Below are positions 805 through 64,000 of a stretch of DNA of 64,000 bases, in pieces. The stretch is taken from sequence record OR880646.1; one strand, written 5' to 3'. The notes beneath the pieces were generated by a model. The model was not told where the DNA came from, did no database searches, and saw nothing but the letters and a program-made list of their open reading frames with translations. The stretch's first letter is position 1. Each line of letters starts with the position of its first letter. The stretch comes from Escherichia phage ECP2301. Made by a program: the position numbers and the translations under genes.

Positions 805-1398
805 TTATTTCAGGGAATTAATGTATTCCTGAACATCGGCAGAGGTAGTTTCAACCCCAGAAATATTACCGTTAAAGGTTTCAACTCGAGCAAGGGTATC
901 TTCAATATCAACCTTAGTCAGTGCTGCAATTTCAACTACATCATCGGCAGTACTAATTCCAAGGGCATTTGCCGCACGAGTTTCACGGATATATTCCAAT
1001 TTAACTGCAAGCTCTTGACGAGCATCATCTAACTCAACTACTTTCTTAGCGATTTCAATTCGCATTTCAGCATAACCGTCAGCCTTAGTAGTCAACTGCT
1101 CAGCCGTTCGACGATATAGTAAACCGAGTTTAGCATGCATTGTTACATCTTGACCTTCGGAAAGAAGTTTACGAATTTCACGCTCTTTTGATTCAGCCTG
1201 TCGATTCTTTTCGACAATAAGTTCACGAATACGTTTTTCTTCATTAATAGATTTAACAGAAGCAGTTTTTAGATCTTTAATTTTATCAAGTAGTTTTGCT
1301 GCAGCAGCAGTATACTGTTCTTCAACAGATAGATTTTTAGCCATAGCAGAACCAAGTTTAGTGCGAATAAACTCAACAATTTTCTTCAGTGTGTTCAT
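805..1398 (-). CDS. hypothetical coiled-coil protein (197 aa)
   Basis: ATG at 1398 with AAGGAAA ribosome-binding site; charged heptad-like K/E/R-rich sequence; early-type promoter upstream at 1426-1455. Confidence 0.5.
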
Positions 1399-1425
1399 AG
1401 TATTTCCTTAGGTTGATACAATTAG

Positions 1426-1455
1426 ATAATATCACGTTTTTAATAGATTGTAAAC
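1426..1455 (-). promoter_or_regulatory. T4 early-type sigma70 promoter (GTTTACA-N17-TATTAT)
   Basis: Revcomp of 1449-1455 is GTTTACA, 17-nt spacer, revcomp of 1426-1431 is TATTAT; upstream of gene 805-1398. Confidence 0.6.
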
Positions 1456-1791
1456 TTATTCTTCGTCTATCTCATCGATAAAGACGTCAATGGCCTCGAT
1501 AACGGCATCATTGATAGCCAATAAAGTAAAATCATCGTCAGTGCCTTTAGAAGATTCTAAAGCATTGATATATGCTTGGTTAGCAAGTTCCCAAGCCTTT
1601 TTAAAATAAGGAGCTTCATCATCAGGGCCAACGAAACGTACACCTTCAAAGATACGGTTAGCATAATCCAATACCCACTGTACAGGCATGTTTTGAGAGC
1701 GTTCGTTAAACTCTTTAAATTCCTTAGATTCAAAAAGCTCTTCGGGATAATAATTTCGATTACAAAAAGCTTTACTAAAGTTACGTTTCAT
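1456..1791 (-). CDS. hypothetical protein, acidic C-terminus (111 aa)
   Basis: ATG at 1791 preceded by GAGGAGA; early-type promoter at 1817-1846. Confidence 0.5.
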   Translation of the reverse strand: MKRNFSKAFCNRNYYPEELFESKEFKEFNERSQNMPVQWVLDYANRIFEGVRFVGPDDEAPYFKKAWELANQAYINALESSKGTDDDFTLLAINDAVIEAIDVFIDEIDEE

Positions 1792-1816
1792 AATGTTCTC
1801 CTCAAGTTACAGGCTC

Positions 1817-1846
1817 ATAATATCTCAATCATGAGCCTGTGTAAAC
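1817..1846 (-). promoter_or_regulatory. T4 early-type promoter (GTTTACA-N17-TATTAT)
   Basis: -35 at 1840-1846, -10 at 1817-1822, 17-nt spacer containing an 8-bp inverted repeat. Confidence 0.6.
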
Positions 1847-2110
1847 TTATTTCATATTATTGAAATATTCTTCTGCGATTTCGTCGTTATCGTGGTAAAC
1901 TTTAGAAGACAGTTTAACATAACCTTCAGCAGCGAACATGTTAATCACAACCTTTACAGTATACCACTGACCATCTTCATTACCCATTACTGCGTAAGTT
2001 TCAAACATCGGATGGTCAGGACCGATAACTTTAATATCATTCACTGTACGACCGAAATCTTCTGAAACACATTTCATAAAGAAGTTGAACAGTTCGCCGT
2101 AATTATCCAT
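1847..2110 (-). CDS. hypothetical protein (about 87 aa; track ORF trimmed to internal ATG)
   Basis: Track ORF begins with TTG at 2230, but an early-type promoter (-35 at 2177-2183, -10 at 2154-2159) lies inside that extension; first ATG at 2110 has a GGAGA ribosome-binding site. Confidence 0.4.
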   Translation of the reverse strand: MDNYGELFNFFMKCVSEDFGRTVNDIKVIGPDHPMFETYAVMGNEDGQWYTVKVVINMFAAEGYVKLSSKVYHDNDEIAEEYFNNMK

Positions 2111-7329: not shown

Positions 7330-8042
7330 TATAGTACCTTTAGTGTATTTTTAATTTTAGAAAAAAGTTCTTCAAGAGAACCATCGTTTGTAATTACTAA
7401 ATCGCCATCACGAATTGGCAATCCAGCTTCTGTAATATGTGTATCATTGGATTTTTGACCAGGACGAACTACATGAATTACTGTAGCACCCATCGCCCTA
7501 GCCGCATCCATTTCATGATCTTGACGAGTATCAGGAACGATATAATAATCATAACCTGAGTTAAATTTATCAAGATAATCTAAAGCAAATAATTTTACCC
7601 AATACATGCGGTCGAAGTTATTAACAATCAAATCCGTACCTAGGGCTTGCATCAGACGACGGACTGACCATTGATCTTCAATATTATTTATAACGTCAGC
7701 AATCTTATTAAATGCTACGAAATTAACTGCGTCATCAAAAACAAATACGCCTTTAATTGGGCTTTTACTATTAAGATAGCAAAATGCTTGTTCCATAATC
7801 GTAATTACTTCTAATTTAGTCAGATTTAAATTAGTCTCACGATCATAGTCAATTCCTTCAAACTCTTTACGAGTTAAGCAAGGATAGTCAGTGTTTGCTG
7901 CAAATACACCCCATGCATAAGCCAATGCATCCTTAATAGGACCAGCAAGTTGATATTTAACTGCAGAATAATTATTCATGATAAAATCTGCAGTAGTATC
8001 TTTTCCACTACGCTTTACACCACTTAAAAAGATTAGTTTCAT
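7329..8042 (-). CDS. 1: deoxynucleoside monophosphate kinase (gp1)
   Basis: P-loop GVKRSGKDT near N-terminus; 237 aa; 57A-1-3-2-4 synteny. Confidence 0.85.
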
Positions 8043-8091
8043 ATGTTTCTCCTCAAATTTAGTTAAGATTATAACACATGAAACTGAAGCA

Positions 8092-8622
8092 TTAAACTTC
8101 TGCTATAATTTTGCCATCTTTTTCTACTTGAAAATACGTATAAGGAATCGTTGCTGTGCATACTAAAGCTGGGTCTGAATCTTCCGTGTAGCTAAATTCT
8201 ACTTCAGACAGGTCAGAAACCCAGGGCTTATAAAAATTTATTGACATCACGATTTCAGTTTTACTATTATCTAAAATGTAAAGCGTAATGTATTCAGGAC
8301 CTGTTTTTTGGGCAGTATTTTCGCCTGTAAGATAGTTACTAGTTCCTAGCATCCATTCATACATTCCTATCCATGACTTAAGCTCTTCATCAACTATAAA
8401 TCTCACGATGAGTGGATCATACTCAAATGTAACTCCTGGACGCTGTGCTCGGCCTAGTCCAAACGGTCCAGTCACGGTATCAGTAACAGGTATCCTAATT
8501 CCTGGAATAGGAACTGACTGAGCATTTAAAGTAAAAGCAGATGTAGTATTACTATGTGGTATTGATACTACAAAGTTAGTTGTATTTGCTTGGTTAAAAA
8601 TTTGTTGTAGTGCTTGCGACAT
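8092..8622 (-). CDS. 3: gp3, tail completion / tube terminator protein
   Basis: Synteny between genes 1 and 2; ATG at 8622 gives 176 aa, the T4 gp3 length (track ORF is extended upstream). Confidence 0.75.
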   Translation of the reverse strand: MSQALQQIFNQANTTNFVVSIPHSNTTSAFTLNAQSVPIPGIRIPVTDTVTGPFGLGRAQRPGVTFEYDPLIVRFIVDEELKSWIGMYEWMLGTSNYLTGENTAQKTGPEYITLYILDNSKTEIVMSINFYKPWVSDLSEVEFSYTEDSDPALVCTATIPYTYFQVEKDGKIIAEV

Positions 8623-8728
8623 ATATTCCTCATAATGCTTCATAAATGTTGGTGGTATAATGGGTCTAAGTCCCTTCCATTCAATTCCAATTAGAACAAA
8701 CAATAGAAAAGAATGGAAGATAATAGAA

Positions 8729-9553
8729 TTAGATATTTGACCAGACTTTGTTTGCAGAGAAACGTTTTCCTTTTGAAACGAACTGCTGAAGTGGCATTAA
8801 CACAACGTTCGCCCAGTCTTTCGGGGCGATTTCAACAAGGCTACCCATGATATTACCGGGTATATATGCCTTAATCATTTGATCTGCACCCCTAAATCCT
8901 TTCACTTGACTCCAATCAATTTTTAATTTCGTTTTATTAGTAATAGTAGGTGTATTTGAATATTGCTTTAAAAGCTCTTCTAGAAATTGCTGACGAGCTT
9001 TAGGTGGAATATAGTGCAAGTTCAATCCGTACATTAAATTATGTTTACCTAAACCAAGATAAATTATCAAAGGAAATTTATCCCAGTAAGGAAGAGTTTC
9101 CTTGTGTTTAGCATCATAAGCAAAAGCATATATTCGTCCCGGCTGCGGGCGAACAACTTTATGTCCTTTTACTTGTTTAATAGTTTCAGCAAACCACTTT
9201 TTGGTTTTATTATTAATTGCTGCACCTTCATTACGAATTTTATCACGCAATGTTTGCCTGAATGAATTTATCATAAGCAGTTGTCTTTCTTGCTTATTGA
9301 GTTTATTCATTGGTTTTGATTCAAGCTTTTGAATCTTTTCAGCTGTTTTAATTCCTGAAGCATATTTTGACATTGCTGAAGTAAACGTAGAGTATTTGAT
9401 TCCTCTTTCTTCGGCAAATTGCTTTCCTGTCATTCCTTTTGCTTTGGCCTTTTTGTATTCAAGACCTATCTGAATCCATTTCTTTTCGTTTAATGATTGC
9501 TTAACCTTTGGAACTTGGGGAGTGCTTTCATTAATTATTTGAAAAATAGCCAT
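8729..9553 (-). CDS. 2: gp2, DNA end-protector protein
   Basis: 274 aa, basic; position between genes 3 and 4 as in T4. Confidence 0.8.
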
Positions 9554-10005
9554 TATGCCCCCTTAAAGCCAAGAGCTCGTAATCCATCTTCTGTTAGAAT
9601 TCTAAATTTTATTCCACGCTTTTCAGCTAAAGCTTGCGCTGCTTTCCATTTGTCAGTATTAACGGAATATGTATAAATTTCATTCATAAATCTTTTCTTC
9701 GCTGCAGTTGTTAGATGTGCTGGTTTAACTGGTGGTTGTGTTTCTTTTTTAGGTTTTATTTCAATAAAAAATTCTTGTCCAGAAGAATCTTTCATCCAAA
9801 TATCCATGAAGTATCTACGTTTTTTCCCTTCTGCATTACAAAAATAAGGAATTACTGCTGTTTCACTACCCCATGCAATAATTTCTGGATTTTTATCTAA
9901 CCATTCAAAAAAGAATTTTTCCCAATTTGATCTATACGTAATTTTTTTAGGGTCACCTCTATATTTTGATATATTTTTAGGAACCCATTTTCCAGAATAT
10001 GCCAT
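9553..10005 (-). CDS. 4: gp4, head completion protein
   Basis: 150 aa; divergent from gene 53 across a bidirectional late-promoter region, as in T4. Confidence 0.8.
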
Positions 10006-10016
10006 TGGATTCTCCT

Positions 10017-10024
10017 TATAAATA
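10017..10024 (+). promoter_or_regulatory. T4 late promoter TATAAATA (gene 53)
   Basis: Exact TATAAATA 29 nt upstream of gene 53 ATG. Confidence 0.7.
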
Positions 10025-10031
10025 GATAATA

Positions 10032-10039
10032 TATTTATA
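10032..10039 (-). promoter_or_regulatory. T4 late promoter TATAAATA (gene 4)
   Basis: Revcomp of 10032-10039 is TATAAATA; 27 nt upstream of gene 4 start. Confidence 0.65.
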
Positions 10040-10052
10040 AACAGGAGGGCCC

Positions 10053-10643
10053 ATGCTCTTTACATTTTTTGATCCGATTGAATATGCGGCCAAAACGGTG
10101 AATAAAAACGCGCCGACTATTCCTATGACAGATATTTTTAGAAACTATAAAGACTATTTCAAACGTGCTCTTGCGGGATACCGCTTACGTACTTATTATA
10201 TTAAAGGTTCACCACGCCCGGAAGAATTAGCAAATGCTATATATGGAAATCCGCAGTTGTATTGGGTTTTATTGATGTGTAATGATAATTATGATCCGTA
10301 TTATGGATGGATTACTTCGCAAGAAGCTGCTTATCAAGCATCTATACAAAAATACAAAAACGTAGGTGGAGACCAAATAGTATATCATGTGAATGAAAAT
10401 GGTGAAAAATTTTATAATTTAGTATCATATGATGATAATCCATATGTTTGGTATGACAAAGGCGATAAAGCTAGAAAATATCCTCAATATGAAGGAGCAC
10501 TTGCTGCGGTCGATACGTATGAAGCTGCTGTTCTTGAAAATGAAAAACTTCGTCAAATAAAAATAATAGCAAAATCAGACATCAATTCATTTATGAACGA
10601 CCTTATACGTATAATGGAGAAATCTTATGGAAATGATAAGTAA
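10053..10643 (+). CDS. 53: gp53, baseplate wedge protein
   Basis: 196 aa; immediately upstream of gene 5; TATAAATA late promoter at 10017-10024. Confidence 0.85.
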   Translation: MLFTFFDPIEYAAKTVNKNAPTIPMTDIFRNYKDYFKRALAGYRLRTYYIKGSPRPEELANAIYGNPQLYWVLLMCNDNYDPYYGWITSQEAAYQASIQKYKNVGGDQIVYHVNENGEKFYNLVSYDDNPYVWYDKGDKARKYPQYEGALAAVDTYEAAVLENEKLRQIKIIAKSDINSFMNDLIRIMEKSYGNDK

Positions 10644-12354
10644 TAACCTTAATTGGTTTGTTGGTGTTGTTGAAGATAGAATGGACCCATTAAAATTAGG
10701 TCGTGTTCGTGTTCGTGTAGTTGGTCTGCATCCACCTCAAAGAGCACAAGGCGACGTAATGGGTATTCCAACTGATAAATTACCATGGATGTCAGTTATT
10801 CAACCTATAACTTCTGCAGCAATGTCTGGAATTGGAGGCTCCGTTACTGGTCCGGTAGAAGGAACTAGAGTTTATGGTCATTTTTTAGACAAATGGAAAA
10901 CTAACGGAATTGTCCTTGGCACGTATGGTGGAATAGTTCGCGAAAAGCCTAATAGACTTGAAGGATTTTCTGACCCGACTGGACAGTATCCTAGACGTCT
11001 AGGAAATGATACTAACGTATTAAACCAAGGCGGAGAAGTAGGATATGATTCGTCTTCTAATATTATCCAAGACAGTAATCTAGACACTGCGATAAATCCT
11101 GATGATAGACCGCTGTCAGAAATTCCAACTGATGATAATCCAAATATGTCAATGGCTGAAATGCTTCGCCGTGATGAAGGATTAAGACTAAAAGTTTATT
11201 GGGATACTGAAGGATATCCGACAATTGGTATTGGTCATCTTATCATGAAGCAGCCAGTTCGTGATATGACTCAAATTAATAAAGTTTTATCAAAACAAGT
11301 TGGTCGTGAAATTACCGGAAATCCAGGTTCTATTACAATGGAAGAAGCGGTAACTTTATTTGAACGTGATTTGGCTGATATGCAACGTGACATTAAATCA
11401 CATTCTAAAGTTGGCCCAGTTTGGCAGGCAGTTAATCGTTCTCGTCAAATGGCATTAGAAAATATGGCATTTCAGATGGGTGTTGGCGGTGTAGCTAAAT
11501 TTAACACAATGTTAACTGCTATGTTAGCCGGAGATTGGGAAAAGGCATATAAAGCTGGTCGTGATTCATTGTGGTATCAACAAACAAAAGGCCGTGCATC
11601 CCGTGTTACCATGATTATTCTTACGGGTAATTTGGAATCATACGGTATTGAAGTGAAAACATCGGCTAGGTCTTTGTCAGCAATGGCTGCTACTGTAGCA
11701 AAGTCTTCTGATCCAGCTGACCCTCCTATTCCGAATGATTCGAGAATTTTATTTAAAGAACCTGTTTCTTCATATAAAGGTGAATATCCGTATGTTCACA
11801 CAATGGAAACTGAAAGCGGTCATATTCAGGAATTTGATGATACCCCTGGGCAAGAACGATACAGATTAGTTCATCCGACTGGAACATATGAGGAAGTATC
11901 ACCGTCAGGAAGAAGAACAAGAAAAACTGTTGATAATTTGTATGATATAACAAATGCTGATGGTAATTTTTTGGTAGCTGGCGATAAAAAGACTAACGTC
12001 GGTGGGTCAGAAATTTATTACAACATGGATAATCGTCTCCACCAAATAGATGGAAGCAATACAATATTTGTGCGTGGCGATGAAACTAAGACGGTTGAAG
12101 GTAATGGAACTATCCTAGTAAAAGGTAATGTTACTATTGTAGTTGAAGGTAATGCTGACATTACAGTTAAAGGAGATGCTACCACTTTAGTTGAAGGAAA
12201 TCAGACTAATACAGTAAATGGAAATCTTTCTTGGAAAGTTGCTGGGACAGTTGATTGGGACGTTGGTGGTGATTGGACAGAAAAAATGGCATCTATGAGT
12301 TCTATTTCATCTGGTCAATACACAATTGATGGATCGAGGATTGACATTGGCTAA
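10627..12354 (+). CDS. 5: gp5, baseplate hub and tail lysozyme (cell-puncturing device)
   Basis: 575 aa; N-terminal MEMISNNLNWFVGVVEDRMDP; central T4-lysozyme-like domain (GYPTIGIGHL); C-terminal VEGN/VKG beta-helix repeats. Confidence 0.95.
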   Translation: MEMISNNLNWFVGVVEDRMDPLKLGRVRVRVVGLHPPQRAQGDVMGIPTDKLPWMSVIQPITSAAMSGIGGSVTGPVEGTRVYGHFLDKWKTNGIVLGTYGGIVREKPNRLEGFSDPTGQYPRRLGNDTNVLNQGGEVGYDSSSNIIQDSNLDTAINPDDRPLSEIPTDDNPNMSMAEMLRRDEGLRLKVYWDTEGYPTIGIGHLIMKQPVRDMTQINKVLSKQVGREITGNPGSITMEEAVTLFERDLADMQRDIKSHSKVGPVWQAVNRSRQMALENMAFQMGVGGVAKFNTMLTAMLAGDWEKAYKAGRDSLWYQQTKGRASRVTMIILTGNLESYGIEVKTSARSLSAMAATVAKSSDPADPPIPNDSRILFKEPVSSYKGEYPYVHTMETESGHIQEFDDTPGQERYRLVHPTGTYEEVSPSGRRTRKTVDNLYDITNADGNFLVAGDKKTNVGGSEIYYNMDNRLHQIDGSNTIFVRGDETKTVEGNGTILVKGNVTIVVEGNADITVKGDATTLVEGNQTNTVNGNLSWKVAGTVDWDVGGDWTEKMASMSSISSGQYTIDGSRIDIG

Positions 12355-12883
12355 TATACTTCCAATGAGCGCTGATTTAGGAGAATCCATGGAAGGTTCT
12401 TCTATCGACGTCACCTTTACCGCTCAATTAGAAACAGGTGAAACGTTAGTATCTATAAATATAACTAGTTACGAAGAAACTCCTGGGGTTTTAGTAGAAG
12501 AAAATCGTTTATATGGAACGTATGAATCTGTATTTGGATTTGGAAATGATGCATTGAAATATCGTTTAGATAATGAATTTAAAACTGCTGCTTCATGGGA
12601 AGACCTTCCAACTGATTCTAATACTCAGTTATATTTATGGAAAGCTCCTCAAAACCTCCAGAAGACATTCACTTACGAAGTAACATTAATATATGACTAC
12701 CAAGAACAAGGTGAATCTGGAGGTTCTGGCAGTAATTCTAGGTCATCTTCTGATACTACTGAACCGACGAATCCTCCAGCTCCAATAAGAAAAACTCTTG
12801 TTAAAAATTATACAAAAACTATAGTTGGAAATTGGAGTCGTTGGGCTAATAAATTGAGAAGCTACGTGTATGAGAGGCCATAA
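12326..12883 (+). CDS. gp5.1-like hypothetical protein
   Basis: ORF between gene 5 and the PAAR gene; start uncertain (alternative ATG at 12365). Confidence 0.5.
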
Positions 12884-56249: not shown

Positions 56250-58343
56250 TTATCCTTGAACGAACTTGTAAGGCATGTTTGTAATATCTATGCAAGACGC
56301 AATAATTCTAAGAGATGATTCTACTTTTTGTTTAACATTTGATGAAACAAATGATGCAAAATCAACTCTGTCTTCTATTTCAATATCACCTGTCATTGCA
56401 ACTACTTCACCAGTTTCCATTAGACGGTCACCGTCATAAATTACTGATTCGGTGAGTTCTTCCGTAGTCATAACTTCAGCTTGAATGAGTTTTGTATTAT
56501 TAGATGTTGTTCCATCATTATTAGAAGCATCAGTTATTTTATTAACTTTGACCATCAATCCGCGTGGTAGAATAACTTCAGCTTCTGTTGCTATTCCGAG
56601 ACTTCCTGGATATACAACATTAACTTTATGAGCTCCATCAATTGCCCATCCTATTTGAACTTTAACGTATTCAGGATTTTCTTTATACGCTCTTATTTCG
56701 TTTGGATTAATAGTTATTCCTTCTTCATTTTTATCAACTGTCAATTCATTACGAGCTTCTGGTTCTAAAAGACCAATACCAGCATGTGTAATTCCAAAAC
56801 GTCCAAAAATGATAGGAGTTAAAGAAGTAGATACAAAATTTCTGAAATAGAACACTTTATTTTTAACTAGTGCTTCGTATATAGGAGCAGTCATACTTTG
56901 AGCACGATAAACTGTAATGCCTTCTGGTATACGGTCACCATTTTCAAAAGCTGAATCTAAGTTATTTATAGCAGATTCAATTTCTTTTTCACTCATTACA
57001 TCATATCGTTCTGGATTGTAGCGTCCTAAAAGAAGATTATTGATGTCAGTATATCCTGAACCACAATACTCTCTAATGCCGCGCTTTTGTGATGGAGTAT
57101 ATTTAGAACCATCGCGAGCAATAGTAATATCAATCATTGGACCTGCACCAATTCCAGAAAAACTATAAATCATTCGTTTGAGGAATTTAGTTTTTGCTGC
57201 GTTCCAGGAATTTTTAGTTATTTCTTCCCAGACTTCATCTGGCTGTCCTTTACGTGTTTTATTATGTTTATCAAGCCAATTATCTTTATATTCTTCAAAG
57301 AGTTGATTAACGGCTGCTGCGTATTTCTCTAAACATTTTATTGAAGTAGTTGGTTCATTTTTAATCGCATTAAGAATTACATCTTTTATCTTTTCAGAAA
57401 CTTCATTAACCTCACTTTTTGAAAAGAATTTATAATCATAGTGAAGTTCATCTGCAGTTCCTTCGGCAATGATTTTTGCTGCCTTAGTTTTAGAAGCTAT
57501 TGAATTAATTCCAAGTTTCATTTCTTCTGCTTCGGGAATTAAAGGAGCGGTAGCAGGTTTATTGAAATTAGCTGCGGTAGATTCATACTTCTGGAATAAT
57601 TCACTTTCAAATCTAGAAGATTCTAATGATTGACTTTGTGCAATTGCTCTACGGGAAATTTTAACTTTAACGATTACAGCTTGATCAGAACGTTTATCGT
57701 TTTCTTGCGCAATAGATGCAGCAATTGCCTCATTTTTAGTTACTTGAGCTCCGGTATCTTTATTGATATAAACATCACCGACCTTCGATTCAACTTTAGT
57801 AAAGAGCTCGGTACTAATTTCAGGAACTCCTGGAATGTCTTCTAATGATACATTTTTGCGATGTATAAGAATATATGCGTACTTTTTATCGTAATCCCAG
57901 AGTTCCTTAAGAAGGACGTATCTGCCACCTGAACGACTACGGATAAGTCTATCAGCAATAAGTTGAATTTGTCGAGCTTGACCAGCAGTTTTAGACTTAA
58001 GAATACGGAGCATACAGGCATCAATTTTATACTGACGCATTGTTTGCATCGCAACAGTAAAAACTGAATTGATGTAATTAATTGGGCTTGGACCGAGACC
58101 TTTTAATTTAGCGATTGAACCTTTAGCAGTTAATGTAAAAGGAACAATATGCATCATTTTATCGCCCATCTTTAAATCGCGATTAGTATCACCTCCAGAT
58201 GTATAGGTACATAAACGAAAGCCTGGTTGTTCAATTGCGTCATCAACATGAACTGAAAAAATTTGCGGTATTTTCTTCTTTGGATTTAAGTTTGTAATCG
58301 GAAGAGTAGTATCTTCGTCAAATAATTCTGTAATGAGTTCCAT
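56250..58343 (-). CDS. alt: Alt, packaged ADP-ribosyltransferase
   Basis: N-terminus MELITELFDE with I-T-E prohead-protease site; triad VYRAQ, FVSTSL, TEAEVILPRG; TATAAATA late promoter at 58367-58374; start taken at second ATG. Confidence 0.8.
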   Translation of the reverse strand: MELITELFDEDTTLPITNLNPKKKIPQIFSVHVDDAIEQPGFRLCTYTSGGDTNRDLKMGDKMMHIVPFTLTAKGSIAKLKGLGPSPINYINSVFTVAMQTMRQYKIDACMLRILKSKTAGQARQIQLIADRLIRSRSGGRYVLLKELWDYDKKYAYILIHRKNVSLEDIPGVPEISTELFTKVESKVGDVYINKDTGAQVTKNEAIAASIAQENDKRSDQAVIVKVKISRRAIAQSQSLESSRFESELFQKYESTAANFNKPATAPLIPEAEEMKLGINSIASKTKAAKIIAEGTADELHYDYKFFSKSEVNEVSEKIKDVILNAIKNEPTTSIKCLEKYAAAVNQLFEEYKDNWLDKHNKTRKGQPDEVWEEITKNSWNAAKTKFLKRMIYSFSGIGAGPMIDITIARDGSKYTPSQKRGIREYCGSGYTDINNLLLGRYNPERYDVMSEKEIESAINNLDSAFENGDRIPEGITVYRAQSMTAPIYEALVKNKVFYFRNFVSTSLTPIIFGRFGITHAGIGLLEPEARNELTVDKNEEGITINPNEIRAYKENPEYVKVQIGWAIDGAHKVNVVYPGSLGIATEAEVILPRGLMVKVNKITDASNNDGTTSNNTKLIQAEVMTTEELTESVIYDGDRLMETGEVVAMTGDIEIEDRVDFASFVSSNVKQKVESSLRIIASCIDITNMPYKFVQG

Positions 58344-58366
58344 CATATCCTCTCTAGTGTTTATTC

Positions 58367-58374
58367 TATTTATA
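58367..58374 (-). promoter_or_regulatory. T4 late promoter TATAAATA (alt)
   Basis: Revcomp of 58367-58374 is TATAAATA, about 20 nt upstream of alt start. Confidence 0.65.
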
Positions 58375-58378
58375 AAAT

Positions 58379-58397
58379 TAAAGGCCCGAAGGCCTTT
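58379..58397 (-). terminator. hairpin AAAGGCC-UUCG-GGCCUUU upstream of alt late promoter
   Basis: Perfect 7-bp stem with tetraloop followed by A/U-rich tract. Confidence 0.5.
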
Positions 58398-58584
58398 AAT
58401 AATCTATTGGTAAGAGAGTACGGTATATTTCAAACTTTGGACCTTTTTCATAGGCATCAAATGTTTCTGTGAATTTATTATAAGCATATGCATCTATAAA
58501 TTCAATCATAATTTGTGATACAGAAGTAGAAACATCTCCACCTTCTTTTTGAGCCACGACAATTGTTTCTAAGTAAGCTTTCAT
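58396..58584 (-). CDS. hypothetical protein (62 aa)
   Basis: ORF overlapping stop of ligase gene; terminator hairpin downstream. Confidence 0.45.
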   Translation of the reverse strand: MKAYLETIVVAQKEGGDVSTSVSQIMIEFIDAYAYNKFTETFDAYEKGPKFEIYRTLLPIDY

Positions 58585-60044
58585 AGACCAGTTACCTCAT
58601 GAAAATCACCAAATACATCCTCGAATGTATTAGCTTTAGTTTTATCTTCACGTAAACGAATCGCAATCGGAAGAAATAATTTAACGTAATCAGTGCGGCC
58701 ATCAGATTTTAACCAACCATTGCATTCACATTCTAGAATTTTTCCAATATAATAATTTTGGTTTTCCATAATGCGAGTACGGTCAAGTTCATGCGATTTT
58801 ACACCGGCTTTATCTTTTAAGCCTGAACCAGCATTTACTTTAATTTTTCCACACTCTGATTCAAGAATAAATCCACCTGCTTTAGTAGGGTCTTTACGGT
58901 GAGGATAAATTCCTACAATTTTTAAATCAACATCAATTACTTCTTTAAATTTATAAAGATTTTTTGAACGAGCATTTTCCCACAATCCATCGGTATTTTT
59001 GAGAATAATACCTTCAAGACCTTGGTCAATATATTTTTTATAAATTACCTTAGCTTCATCTAGGTTATTTACTACCTGGTTTTCAATTAAAATTACTTTA
59101 TCATATCCTGATGTCATTTGTTCTAGTTTAGAAAAACGTACATCATACTTCAAACGAAACGCCGGAAGACCGTATATTTCTACCAACGGGACATAATCCC
59201 AGACCTGAAACTTCATGCATTGAGCTTCTTTTTCAGAAATGGTTCCTTTTAAGGATTTATTGGCGATTCCATTAGAAGTAGTACGAGATTCCGCTACTTC
59301 GGCGAATTCTTTAGCTTTACTAATTTCAGGATAAGCATCAAAAAGAAAATCTAGGCCTTCTGGTTCCTTTTTAACTTGCTCATGGTATACCAATTCGCCA
59401 TCGATTAACACACCTTCTGGATGAATCTGGCGGGCTTCAGCAGTCATTTTGATTAACTCTTCCTTAAGAAGATCTAATCCTAGATATTCATTACCAGCTC
59501 GTGATAAAAGACGAACATCATCTAATTCATCACCTCGGACTTCAGCAAAACACCGAGCTCCATCTGCTTTTAACTGTGCAAAGGCTGGAAACTTGATATT
59601 CTTATTAATGCCCTTTTCATCATAAGAACTTGCCAGCATTTGAGGTTGTTCAGGAATTAAACCTGGCCAAACTTTATTTGCAATAGATACTGAAGCACCG
59701 CATTCAAGATCTCGCATCATAACTCGACGCAAAACTTCAACATCATCCTTTTTACCATCGGTGATATATCCAGTTAATTCCTCAATTGCCGCATTTCCAG
59801 TCAATTTCCGAGTAGCTAACGTGAATTCAATGAAGTCAAGCATATCAGTAATGGTCAGCATTCCAAAACTCTGGGTAGCAATACCAGGCTTAGGCCATTT
59901 CTTGATATAATACTGTAACCCACGAGAATAAGTCAGACGATATACTCGTTTAAGCAATTCATTATCTTTATTCTTTTCAAGAATTGCTTGCTTCTGCTTA
60001 GTTGATCCAATAGATGCTATTTCATTCAGAATTTTAAGAATCAT
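58581..60044 (-). CDS. 30: ATP-dependent DNA ligase (gp30)
   Basis: 487 aa; adenylation motif KADGARC; position next to alt as in T4. Confidence 0.95.
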   Translation of the reverse strand: MILKILNEIASIGSTKQKQAILEKNKDNELLKRVYRLTYSRGLQYYIKKWPKPGIATQSFGMLTITDMLDFIEFTLATRKLTGNAAIEELTGYITDGKKDDVEVLRRVMMRDLECGASVSIANKVWPGLIPEQPQMLASSYDEKGINKNIKFPAFAQLKADGARCFAEVRGDELDDVRLLSRAGNEYLGLDLLKEELIKMTAEARQIHPEGVLIDGELVYHEQVKKEPEGLDFLFDAYPEISKAKEFAEVAESRTTSNGIANKSLKGTISEKEAQCMKFQVWDYVPLVEIYGLPAFRLKYDVRFSKLEQMTSGYDKVILIENQVVNNLDEAKVIYKKYIDQGLEGIILKNTDGLWENARSKNLYKFKEVIDVDLKIVGIYPHRKDPTKAGGFILESECGKIKVNAGSGLKDKAGVKSHELDRTRIMENQNYYIGKILECECNGWLKSDGRTDYVKLFLPIAIRLREDKTKANTFEDVFGDFHEVTGL

Positions 60045-60310
60045 TGTTCATCCTTCAGAGTTTGATTTACAGCTCTATTATAAATCAATTCATCATTAAG
60101 CTCAGTTAAAGACCTATGATATGTAGTTCTAACTTTATTTCCTTGCATCCAGTGCTTGATATAAATGAAACCTTGCTCTACACATTTTTTAAAAATTCGT
60201 TCGTCTTTTTGAGCTCGGAATTCTGGATTGCATCTAAAGAATTGATTTACGTGACCGTAATCACGTGTAGTATTACCTTCATTTTCATAAATAGTGTGAA
60301 CGACAAACAT
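60041..60310 (-). CDS. hypothetical protein (T4 30.1 position)
   Basis: 89 aa ORF; translational coupling with neighbours. Confidence 0.55.
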   Translation of the reverse strand: MFVVHTIYENEGNTTRDYGHVNQFFRCNPEFRAQKDERIFKKCVEQGFIYIKHWMQGNKVRTTYHRSLTELNDELIYNRAVNQTLKDEQ

Positions 60311-61149
60311 TAGAATGCTCCTTGGAAAATATTATCACCACAAGTAGGTCTATTATACAAATACTCTATGCCACCAGGTTTAATATAGTTCCATGTCTGA
60401 AACGGATGTGTCTGATATGGATGATATAGATGATTATAAGGATTAAATCCAGGCGTTCTCCAGGTAGTGTTCCAACGAAAAGAATCATTTTTAATCATCT
60501 TTTCAATTATATCTTTTATAGCTTTTTCACTATCAAAACTTTCTTTATTTTCCTTTGGTGAAAAAAGCTTATTTTCTACATCATTCCATGTATAAACTCG
60601 CTGCGCAGTTTTTGGAATATTGTCACGCTCTCCTCGAGCCATCCAATAAACAGGAACATTTAATATTTCACTCGCATGATCGCAATGGTGCGCTAGATCG
60701 TCAATATAACAAATCACGTTATATTTCTCTTTTGCCTTTTTGAATAACTCTTCTTTTGAAGAATCATGACCACACATCATTACTTCTGAGAAGGCACCAG
60801 GAAAAAGAGCATTCAAATTAAATTGACGATTCAACAGAGCGTCAATAGAATCACCCAATGCTGTAACAGCTACAAAATTATAATCTTCTTTTAGTTTGTT
60901 AATTACGCACAGGGCATCTTTATATGGAGACAGGTAACGAATAAAATCTGATCGATTGTATTTTTCAATTAGCTTGACACCAAGTTCTTCATCACAATTA
61001 AAGAGTTTACCTGGAGAAATAAATTTCTCATCTTGGATCATTTTTAAAATATGTTCTAACGGAAGATTATATTTCTGAGCAAAATAAGGAAGACCTGATT
61101 GCCAGCTTAAACATACTCCATCAATATCAGTCAAAATAGTAGGCTTCAT
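60310..61149 (-). CDS. HAD-superfamily-like hydrolase (T4 30.2 position)
   Basis: HAD motif I ILTDIDGV at N-terminus, later DD motif (CYIDDLAHH); 279 aa. Confidence 0.55.
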   Translation of the reverse strand: MKPTILTDIDGVCLSWQSGLPYFAQKYNLPLEHILKMIQDEKFISPGKLFNCDEELGVKLIEKYNRSDFIRYLSPYKDALCVINKLKEDYNFVAVTALGDSIDALLNRQFNLNALFPGAFSEVMMCGHDSSKEELFKKAKEKYNVICYIDDLAHHCDHASEILNVPVYWMARGERDNIPKTAQRVYTWNDVENKLFSPKENKESFDSEKAIKDIIEKMIKNDSFRWNTTWRTPGFNPYNHLYHPYQTHPFQTWNYIKPGGIEYLYNRPTCGDNIFQGAF

Positions 61150-61610
61150 AGAGAGTCTCTTAGTAGGTTTAACACATCAATAAATTCAGCTTCGGTTAGT
61201 ATTGTATCATCTTTTGTTAGACCACTAGCCATGCTGTGCTTCAAAACTTTTCCTTTCGAGGCTTGTAATGCATCACGAAAGCCCCTGTTTTGGATCGCTG
61301 CTTCAAAATATGCATTTGTGTATAATTCTTTCCACGCCGGGGAGTATCTTGAAAACGGAACTCCAAGCCAGAAGAGGGTCCCACGGTCCTGAGCTCTAGC
61401 ATAAGCTCGTCCAGCTTGTTGGGCGGCAAGCCCGGATAACCCAAATATACGACGTTGCTGTTCAATATTTTTCACCTTACACCCTTGGAGGAATCCTTCG
61501 AGACCTCCAAATTGGATACCATCCATAACAAAAGGCCATTGGGCGAAATTACTTAATGCGCATGATGGCCATTTAAAATTGCTTCTTATCTCTAGCTCAG
61601 ACATTTTCAA
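61146..61610 (-). CDS. NADAR/YbiA-like (DUF1768-type) protein
   Basis: Motif block LSNFAQWPFVMDGIQFGGLEGFLQGCK parallels the YbiA/NADAR signature (SNF..WP...DG..F...E.F.Q..K); 154 aa. Confidence 0.55.
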   Translation of the reverse strand: MKMSELEIRSNFKWPSCALSNFAQWPFVMDGIQFGGLEGFLQGCKVKNIEQQRRIFGLSGLAAQQAGRAYARAQDRGTLFWLGVPFSRYSPAWKELYTNAYFEAAIQNRGFRDALQASKGKVLKHSMASGLTKDDTILTEAEFIDVLNLLRDSL

Positions 61611-61803
61611 TACTTATAATTTCAACATCAGCCCAATGACCATAGCAAGGAAGACGAAATTCAACTGGCCAGTTAGGGTCCTTTTCTAATATAATAGACT
61701 CAACTTTCGGTTCTTCATGTTCATCAGTATATGGATTTTTATCTGTTACTTTATATGTGACCTTAATGTACTGAATTCCAAAAATCTTATTAATTATATT
61801 CAT
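61597..61803 (-). CDS. hypothetical protein (68 aa)
   Basis: ORF in operon-like array with overlapping start/stop. Confidence 0.45.
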   Translation of the reverse strand: MNIINKIFGIQYIKVTYKVTDKNPYTDEHEEPKVESIILEKDPNWPVEFRLPCYGHWADVEIISIENV

Positions 61804-61997
61804 ACTAATTCCTTTAATCCGTAAATAGGAGATAATTCATCACCCATACGAAGGTCTTCATTTCCATCTACCCAGGAAACAATATAAGCCTCTTTTATTT
61901 GAATACCACTCCATTTAAATGGAGGTAGAACCTTAGAAATTAATCCAGGTATACCAACTCCCTTTAATTCAACAGTTTGACCTAAAAAGAATTTCAT
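61800..61997 (-). CDS. hypothetical protein (65 aa)
   Basis: ORF in operon-like array. Confidence 0.45.
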   Translation of the reverse strand: MKFFLGQTVELKGVGIPGLISKVLPPFKWSGIQIKEAYIVSWVDGNEDLRMGDELSPIYGLKELV

Positions 61998-62284
61998 TAG
62001 AACCTCATCTGAAAACCGTGCGATTTAACATTACCGCCGCCAATATCAGAAATATTAATTTCACGCGCAATTGAAGGGTCAATGTCAATTTCACGATTGA
62101 GTTTAGTGATAGCTAAAGTATCGCGGCCATTTACAGTACGGAACTCTAAAGGGCAGACTACATTAACATAGTTTTTAATCGATTCACTGGTAGGTTGCAA
62201 ATGAGCAGGAAGGTCTTTAGGCGCCTTAGAGAAAACCACTTCACAGAAATTTTTGCGGGTGTCAAAATAAGTAGTCATAAACAT
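61997..62284 (-). CDS. hypothetical protein (95 aa)
   Basis: ORF; GAGGA ribosome-binding site after intercistronic hairpin. Confidence 0.5.
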   Translation of the reverse strand: MFMTTYFDTRKNFCEVVFSKAPKDLPAHLQPTSESIKNYVNVVCPLEFRTVNGRDTLAITKLNREIDIDPSIAREINISDIGGGNVKSHGFQMRF

Positions 62285-62301
62285 AGTATTTTCCTCAGTA
62301 A

Positions 62302-62315
62302 GGGGCCGAAGCCCC
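62302..62315 (-). other. intercistronic hairpin GGGGCCGAAGCCCC (third copy)
   Basis: Identical 14-mer to 785-798 and 41592-41605; followed by ribosome-binding site and ATG of next gene rather than a U-tract. Confidence 0.45.
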
Positions 62316-62325
62316 TCATTTTATT

Positions 62326-62691
62326 TTAAATATCAAATTCGTTAAGAACTACATCAAAGATTGCTTCAAGATGCTCAGGTTTAGCTCTGTTACTCAGAAT
62401 ATGACGGATCCAAGTTTTAACCAGAAGCTTGCGATTAACGCCATTCCAGCAAGGATGAGTCCCTAAATCGCGTTGACGAAAATCATCATCCAGGGCGATT
62501 TTGAAGTTGGAACCTTCCATTGTGATTGAAACCGTGATGCCATTTTCAAATCGCATATAAACGTAGTTAGGAGTCATATACTGTTCAATTTCGCATACTG
62601 ATCCATTTTGATGTTTCCAAAGGCAAATAGTATCAATAGAACCTGCAATACCATTAGAAACATATTTACGTTCAAAGTTGATGTAGTTCAT
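62326..62691 (-). CDS. hypothetical protein (121 aa)
   Basis: ORF followed by GGGGCCGAAGCCCC hairpin. Confidence 0.5.
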   Translation of the reverse strand: MNYINFERKYVSNGIAGSIDTICLWKHQNGSVCEIEQYMTPNYVYMRFENGITVSITMEGSNFKIALDDDFRQRDLGTHPCWNGVNRKLLVKTWIRHILSNRAKPEHLEAIFDVVLNEFDI

Positions 62692-62759
62692 TTTTATTCT
62701 CCGAGATGTTTAATTGCGGTACATGTATATAATATCATATCCTGTACCAAAGTAAACAA

Positions 62760-63092
62760 TTATTTTACTACTTTCCAGTGCTGCATGTCAAGTTTACCAA
62801 CTTTTTTCATCTTCTCAATTAAGCGTTCTGCGCGTTGGCGAGCTGTAACATAATGCCATTCACCTAATTCATTTTGTTCAATTTTTCCAACGATTACTGT
62901 ATTCAATTCATAAATCCAACCAGTAAAGAAATTATGAACTTGAATTGTAAAGGTGAAATCTGTTCCCATACCTTCTGTTGTTTCTACTTCAATAATATCA
63001 CCTTCAACTGCCATTAAGAACCACATAGTTTCATCATATTTACCATTGAAGCATTTAGTTTTAACTGCAGCGTTCAGATTAATCGTTTTCAT
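62760..63092 (-). CDS. hypothetical protein (110 aa)
   Basis: ORF driven by early-type promoter 63120-63149. Confidence 0.5.
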   Translation of the reverse strand: MKTINLNAAVKTKCFNGKYDETMWFLMAVEGDIIEVETTEGMGTDFTFTIQVHNFFTGWIYELNTVIVGKIEQNELGEWHYVTARQRAERLIEKMKKVGKLDMQHWKVVK

Positions 63093-63119
63093 TTTATTCT
63101 CCTTTGTTTGTGTAAGATA

Positions 63120-63149
63120 ATACTATCACAAAGGAACCATACTGTAAAC
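63120..63149 (-). promoter_or_regulatory. T4 early-type promoter (GTTTACA-N17-TAGTAT)
   Basis: -35 at 63143-63149, -10 at 63120-63125. Confidence 0.6.
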
Positions 63150-63169
63150 AACTTTGTGCAATCTTTGGA

Positions 63170-63197
63170 AAATAAAAAAGGACTCCCGAAGGAGTCC
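63170..63197 (-). terminator. intrinsic terminator hairpin plus U-tract
   Basis: GGACTCC-CGAA-GGAGTCC; revcomp of A-tract 63170-63179 gives U-run. Confidence 0.6.
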
Positions 63198-63202
63198 TCA
63201 AC

Positions 63203-63379
63203 TTATGCTTTCTGCTTACCAAAACGAGAAGCATCATCTCGAAGAACCGCACGTGCTCGGCGCATGATCTTCTCAACAGTTTGATTGATACGAGAGTTCG
63301 ACCCACGCTTGTAGCCAGCGCGTTTAGAATCACCAACTTTCTTTTCAACTGCTTTCTTTGCTTTAGCTTGTTTTGCCAT
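63203..63379 (-). CDS. small basic protein (58 aa)
   Basis: ATG at 63379 (MAKQAKAKKAVEKK...); track ORF extended upstream; terminator hairpin plus U-tract downstream. Confidence 0.5.
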   Translation of the reverse strand: MAKQAKAKKAVEKKVGDSKRAGYKRGSNSRINQTVEKIMRRARAVLRDDASRFGKQKA

Positions 63380-63777
63380 TATAAATTCTCTTTTAAATGA
63401 AAATGCAGGACTTATTGGCATTGCCTGCGCAAGCCCTCAAGGGGAACATAGGTTTTTGAATATTTAACGACCAGGATAACCATAAACCCGTCATCATACC
63501 TTATAGCTCTTATCTGTTGCACACCGTTAGCTTAAAGGTTCCGGGTTCGATTTCTCGAGGATAAGATATATACTGATGGATATATAGGCCTTGAGGCGTA
63601 CTCCCGATTGGCCATCACCTCGGGGTAGCATGCACTTGCCGCTATAAGAATAACATTCAAGAGGTACACCGTAAAACTGCCGGGGTCTTAAAACTATAAT
63701 GATTCGCAAATCATTAATCAGACAGTTCGACGGCTCCTCGTTTTAACTTCACACTAAGGCAGTGACTCTCCAATAAA

Positions 63778-64000
63778 TTACTTCAGTGTTACCACAAAGT
63801 GACGAACTGCTTTTCGTGCAGCAGAAGCCAGAGGCTTAGCATATTTAAGTTCATCTTTTTCCTGAAGCTCAGCAGCTAATGCAGTTTGAGCAGGATTCAG
63901 ATGTTTGAAATAACGCAGGATTTCAAGAGCTTCGGCTTCAACATCAATAGATGCGCCATAGTTTTCGTGACCATTATTCCATGCGTTTCGTTGCAGTTCA
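63778..64000 (-). CDS. partial CDS, C-terminal fragment (runs off window end)
   Basis: Hand translation of minus strand ends ...KYAKPLASAARKAVRHFVVTLK then TAA at 63778-63780; possibly rIII by position only. Confidence 0.4.
   Translation of the reverse strand, partial: ELQRNAWNNGHENYGASIDVEAEALEILRYFKHLNPAQTALAAELQEKDELKYAKPLASAARKAVRHFVVTLK

Follow-up and report, generated by a model that had tools for sequence, protein, structure and literature searches.

An ortholog of T4 gene 30.3 (adfN) in Escherichia phage ECP2301 encodes a core-only NADAR-fold protein with a predicted role against DarTG1

The window analyzed here is a 64,000-nucleotide stretch of the Escherichia phage ECP2301 genome (OR880646.1), and its ORF listing contains a minus-strand ORF at 61146..61610 (-) that encodes 154 aa from a TTG start. 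The frame carries the motif LSNFAQWPFVMDGIQFGGLEGFLQGCK as residues 19-45 in the TTG numbering. The original prediction, made from the raw sequence, had quoted this ORF and this motif, and both are present exactly as it gave them. An ATG at 61604..61602, two codons past the TTG, gives a 152-aa product in which the motif spans L17-K43. Gene 30.3 in the T4 record is annotated from an ATG as a 459-nt gene encoding 152 aa. The ATG at 61604 is likely the true adfN start rather than the TTG because the T4 annotation uses ATG and the published E36/K43 numbering fits the ATG start only, and the TTG AAA codons at 61605..61610 are probably not translated. The methods of one biochemical study (Toxins 2024) describe a T4 gp30.3 construct of 'residues 1-208', compared to the 152 aa encoded in the T4 record (10308..10766), a discrepancy that may reflect a tag or a differing annotation. 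The gene is tightly packed between its neighbors. The adfN ATG overlaps the gene 30.4 stop by 8 nt, and the adfN stop overlaps the gene 30.2 start in an ATGA at 61146..61149.

Table 1. Positions of adfN, its catalytic features and neighboring genes in the ECP2301 window.
Feature	Position	Strand	Comment
Alt-like ADP-ribosyltransferase, 685 aa	54189..56246	-	PF03496
Alt-like ADP-ribosyltransferase, 698 aa	56250..58346	-	PF03496
DNA ligase	58581..60044	-	Same strand as adfN
Gene 30.2, 279 aa	60310..61149	-	No Pfam match; phrog_420 (function unknown)
adfN (gene 30.3) CDS	61146..61604	-	152 aa + stop; ATG start as in T4; PF08010 match
C-terminal helix, residues 138-152	61149..61193	-	AF2 helix 138-151; sequence same as T4
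H123, codon CAC	61236..61238	-	In place of the last-strand Glu/Asp of other NADARs; family-invariant; gp30.3-clade marker
Overlapping +1-frame ORF in adfN, T4's 30.3'	61241..61465	-	The T4 ATG is ATA here; TTG only
K43, phosphate-coordinating lysine, codon AAG	61476..61478	-	Family-invariant; aligns with YbiA K55
NADAR N-terminal signature L17-K43, LSNFAQWPFVMDGIQFGGLEGFLQGCK	61476..61556	-	BLASTP, hmmsearch and hhalign to YbiA 29-55, FSNFAAWPIKVDGKTWPTSEHYFQAQK
E36, catalytic glutamate, codon GAA	61497..61499	-	Invariant in 66-67 members; aligns with YbiA E48
Two additional in-frame codons, TTG AAA	61605..61610	-	Source of the 154-aa reading

adfN lies in an early-gene block of the T4 type (Tequatrovirus-like), and a 12-kb stretch of this block matches T4-like phages of Shigella and Escherichia at 97.5% identity. 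Genes are arranged as in T4, in the order alt, alt.1, 30 (ligase), 30.1, 30.2, 30.3, 30.4-30.7, and the neighboring proteins are 97-100% identical. The ADP-ribosyltransferase and ligase genes that the original prediction placed nearby correspond to two PF03496 genes and the DNA ligase gene, located 1-7 kb from adfN on the same strand. The two tandem full-length Alt-like proteins (685 and 698 aa) are 41% identical to one another. The 698-aa copy is 70% identical to T4 Alt, compared to 97-100% for the products of the flanking genes. Over its first 116 residues, the 685-aa copy is 95-98% identical to the T4 alt.-1 and alt.-2 fragments, which identifies these T4 'remnants' as the decayed counterpart of a second alt paralogue still intact in ECP2301. 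Gene 30.2 is translationally coupled to adfN through the ATGA overlap and is labeled a 5'-nucleotidase-like protein in some database records. It lies directly downstream of adfN and coupled to it in T4, VR7 and ECP2301, and Yersinia phage MHG19 has a 30.2 homologue (55% identity) two genes downstream of its gp30.3 gene.

Codon comparisons were used to assess the 30.3' frame that overlaps adfN. Across the overlap, the window differs from T4 by 5 synonymous and 2 non-synonymous changes when read as adfN and by 0 and 7 when read as 30.3'; the corresponding values for the window and VR7 are 22 and 19 in the adfN frame and 6 and 35 in the 30.3' frame. Purifying selection on the 30.3' frame was looked for against T4 and VR7 with no sign of it, and in Yersinia phage MHG19 the frame is interrupted. 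These substitution patterns suggest that 30.3' is probably not a real gene. A promoter and terminator scan of 58000..64000 gave no excess over shuffled sequences (20 promoter-like sites versus 21.7), and counts at the shuffle level support no inference about expression.

The predicted 152-aa protein was aligned with T4 gp30.3, and 147 of the 152 residues are identical (~97% identity) and 152/152 are positives without gaps. The five substitutions are conservative (T4 residue second: K11R, I47V, A67S, R107K, and M125I). The protein matches PF08010 (Phage_30_3) over profile positions 1-138 of 138 with E 3.7e-69 and 231.3 bits against a gathering cutoff of 36. It also matches phrog_652, a family of unknown function in PHROGs, with E 4.3e-51 over profile positions 126-272 of 296. 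This coverage hints at longer fused members; the homologues that were retrieved range from 147 to 201 aa, with short extensions at the N terminus in a few of them. Relatives at the megablast level are found in 692 phage records, and together with the two profile matches these place the predicted ORF well above chance. By tblastn, a family member turns up in 1510 phage records out of 50,697, and the carriers are mostly Straboviridae that infect Escherichia, Klebsiella, Shigella, Aeromonas, Acinetobacter, and Vibrio.

The connection to the NADAR superfamily emerges from the family rather than from the single sequence. The window protein had no match to PF08719, the Pfam NADAR model, at E<=1, no matches in NCBIfam and PADLOC searches, and no significant phmmer match in the PDB, where the best hit was a spurious ATP pyrophosphatase at E 0.85. 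Pfam keeps the phage clade as a separate model (PF08010), and 28 of 67 gp30.3-family members individually match PF08719 with a best E of 1.5e-7. An alignment of 66 homologues, down to 35% identity, was used to build a family profile that detects E. coli YbiA in the PDB by hmmsearch at E 0.004 and aligns with YbiA by hhalign with 92.8% probability and E 3.9e-7 over 90 columns. The motif region alone is 36% identical to YbiA over 53 aa by pairwise BLASTP. The NADAR profile search that the original prediction put forward as a check thus fails for the single protein when taken to the letter.

The YbiA/NADAR signature named in the original prediction aligns with YbiA residues 29-55, and E36 and K43 correspond to YbiA E48 and K55. 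This N-terminal motif is E43/K50 in PnNADAR, and the superfamily counterparts of E36 include PnNADAR E43 and E. coli C7 E88 (PMC11543638). The E36A and K43A mutations each weaken AdfN-T4 (PMC11825919). A single-sequence AlphaFold model had a pLDDT of 38 and was unusable, and an alignment-based AF2 model was used instead. This model has the NADAR fold, with an alpha-helical core and small flanking sheets. The last strand comprises residues 120-123 and places H123 at the strand end, and the hhalign alignment ends with K122 at YbiA V124, which positions H123 opposite YbiA E125. The residue at the last strand is His in phage gp30.3-type NADARs, Glu in the YbiA family, and Asp in the DarG1 family (PMC11125620, PMC11543638, PMC12945103). 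A frameshifted RB69 allele that lacks the last 15 residues is defective (PMC11825919). The ECP2301 ORF is open through residue 152 with residues 138-152 the same as in T4, and the C-terminal helix that is missing from the inactive RB69 allele is intact. These results establish orthology, fold, catalytic residue conservation, and allele intactness.

The function of the T4 ortholog is published. De Souza and Aravind are credited with the bioinformatic assignment of the phage clade to NADAR, and NADARs hydrolyze the guanine-N2-ADP-ribose made by DarT1 using defined catalytic residues (Schuller et al. 2023; PMC11543638). T4 gp30.3 hydrolyzes G-ADPr in vitro, yet gives uninfected cells no protection against DarT1 (Toxins 2024; PMC11125620). 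Johannesman et al. 2025 renamed T4 gp30.3 AdfN, and deletion of adfN from T4 and T2 abolishes plating on DarTG1 hosts, whereas ectopic adfN rescues RB69 (PMC11825919). AdfN-T4 removes ADP-ribose from DNA guanine in vitro (PMC11825919, Fig. 4d), does not bind DarT1 (PMC11825919), and is specific for guanine, not thymidine. AdfN is necessary and sufficient against DarTG1, and DarTG2 is unaffected (PMC11825919). Transposon sequencing by HIDEN-SEQ independently finds that adfN insertions are lost only on the DarTG1 host and identifies tk.4 (AdfM) as the DarTG2 counterpart. G-ADPr hydrolysis by the T4 enzyme was confirmed in a later study, which also noted that the phage NADAR has no domain beyond the core (Toxins 2026; PMC12945103). 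The ADP-ribose-processing and anti-DarTG function that the original prediction proposed is supported, and it has already been demonstrated for the 97%-identical T4 gp30.3. The finding is not new, since near-identical T4 AdfN has been characterized against DarTG1 and the gene, fold, activity, and phenotype were all published in 2023-2026.

ECP2301 AdfN shares with T4 gp30.3 the same length, the 30.4-30.2 slot, E36, K43, H123, and the intact C-terminal helix. It differs from DarG1 of the BC4488 type (for example, the G. lovleyi NADAR (8bat) and the E. coli C7 NADAR), which has an N-terminal extension, an Asp on the last strand, and an adjacent DarT1. The window protein has His rather than Asp, consists of a 152-aa core, and has no adjacent DarT gene. 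A NADAR motif that starts at residue 17 of 152 leaves no room for an N-terminal extension. Pfam searches with the neighboring 30.4 and 30.2 proteins gave no match at E<=0.01 and thus no sign of a DarT domain in either. The T4 protein also cannot stand in for the DarG1 antitoxin in uninfected cells. AdfN-Bas32 and AdfN-Bas60 of T5-like and Vequintavirinae phages are phage NADARs that use the same activity against DarTG1. They belong to other NADAR clades that were independently acquired, and they are active without the T-even infection context and can neutralize DarT1 in uninfected cells.

E. coli YbiA (2b3w) raises the alternative that the phage protein is a housekeeping N-glycosidase and, in the infected cell, breaks down reactive intermediates of the riboflavin pathway or similar ribosylamine metabolites. 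YbiA has a riboflavin-related housekeeping role and a LexA-controlled operon, and its overall identity to the window protein is ~20%. The YbiA family is defined by its last-strand glutamate, E125 (PMC11125620), and the corresponding residue is H123 in the window protein and His in all 66 relatives. Published trees group the gp30.3 clade with the DarG1-like NADARs, not YbiA, and the T4 ortholog has a direct DarTG1 phenotype, which makes a YbiA-type function exceedingly unlikely. A second alternative, mentioned in the original prediction as tuning of the phage's own ADP-ribosyltransferase activity, is that the proximity to alt reflects a shared function and the gene reverses or tunes the ADP-ribosylation by Alt, ModA, and ModB (of arginine on host proteins, or RNAylation). 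It draws on the two Alt-like genes that lie 3-7 kb from adfN on the same strand and on the origin of the NADAR name, which was given because these domains co-occur in genomes with NAD/ADP-ribose enzymes (PMC11543638). The linkage, however, is not conserved. A tblastn search for Alt, 30.1, 30.2, and 30.4 within 8 kb of the gp30.3-family gene found none of them in six distant loci, namely Klebsiella phage Mineola (Jiaodavirus), Aeromonas phage AS-yj (Ceceduovirus), Sinorhizobium phage phiN3 (Emdodecavirus), a Krischvirus, and two metagenomic phage contigs. With Alt absent from all six, the proximity to alt reflects T4-type genome order rather than a conserved functional linkage. Characterized NADARs act on guanine and, in some cases, cytidine in nucleic acids, no protein substrate appears in the cited NADAR papers, and T4 adfN is dispensable on K-12 lacking DarTG1. 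Tuning of the phage's own enzymes finds no support and is very unlikely.

The same six loci eliminate family-wide linkage to 30.2 or Alt as obligate partners. The ligase gene is adjacent to the gp30.3-family gene only in the Krischvirus phage and is 4 kb away in one of the contigs. The Mineola gene (8001..8450) is located in a tRNA cluster between the 57B/gene 1 and e (lysozyme) sides instead of beside the ligase, which indicates that the gp30.3-family gene has moved within Straboviridae genomes. The AS-yj gene is followed by genes for a PRPP-synthetase-like protein and a nicotinamide phosphoribosyltransferase (8001..12509), both of NAD salvage, and metagenomic contig L002 has a Pribosyl_synth gene (1060..2022) 6 kb upstream of its family member. 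ADP-ribose release may be linked to NAD+ replenishment modules in some phages.

The preferred conclusion, to which we assign a probability of about 0.93, is that the gene is the T4 gene 30.3 (adfN, 'anti-DarT factor NADAR') ortholog of a T4-like phage and encodes a minimal, core-only NADAR-fold ADP-ribosylglycohydrolase that counters DarTG1. The proposed mechanism would start with activation of host DarTG1, whereupon DarT1 would attach ADP-ribose to the N2 amino group of guanine in phage DNA and block phage replication. AdfN would then hydrolyze the guanine-ADP-ribose bond, freeing ADP-ribose and making the DNA replicable again, and would act enzymatically on the DarT1 product without binding the toxin. 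E36 and H123 are predicted by homology to position the distal ribose and K43 to hold the diphosphate. The activity, DarTG1 phenotype, guanine specificity, and T-even dependence are carried over from experiments with the T4 protein, and the 97%-identical ECP2301 allele would be expected to behave like T4 AdfN. Nothing in the five conservative substitutions suggests a functional difference between the two proteins.

AdfN-T4 is fully effective only in T-even infection, which implies a phage factor (PMC11825919). It does not neutralize DarT1 in uninfected cells and rescues T5 and Bas25 weakly, and a simple model of enzyme plus modified DNA is therefore incomplete. Gene 30.2 is a candidate for the T-even factor needed by AdfN. 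A fuller proposal, which we consider rather unlikely, is that the core-only NADAR would need a phage-encoded partner that stabilizes it or brings it to ssDNA or the replication fork and may also erase guanine ADP-ribosylation by further DNA- or RNA-targeting defense ADP-ribosyltransferases. The range of targets bears on a related alternative, in which guanine-ADPr RNA, or DNA modified by further guanine-targeting defense enzymes, is the main or an additional substrate and DarTG1 is one of several systems countered. In vitro, members of every NADAR family, among them the phage one, reportedly cleave G-ADPr off RNA (PMC12945103); the AdfN study itself raises such a wider role (PMC11825919), and a product-directed enzyme would be indifferent to the toxin that made the lesion. 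AdfN is not known to counter any such further system, and the DNA/DarTG1 role is enough to account for gene retention, so this alternative is quite improbable.

The reading of the raw sequence recovered a genuine counter-defense gene and its mechanism and adds no new biology. The identification of adfN is useful for annotation because nearly all records, among the matches listed, call the gene a 'hypothetical protein'. It is also useful for host-range prediction, and ECP2301 is predicted to be resistant to DarTG1-type defense.
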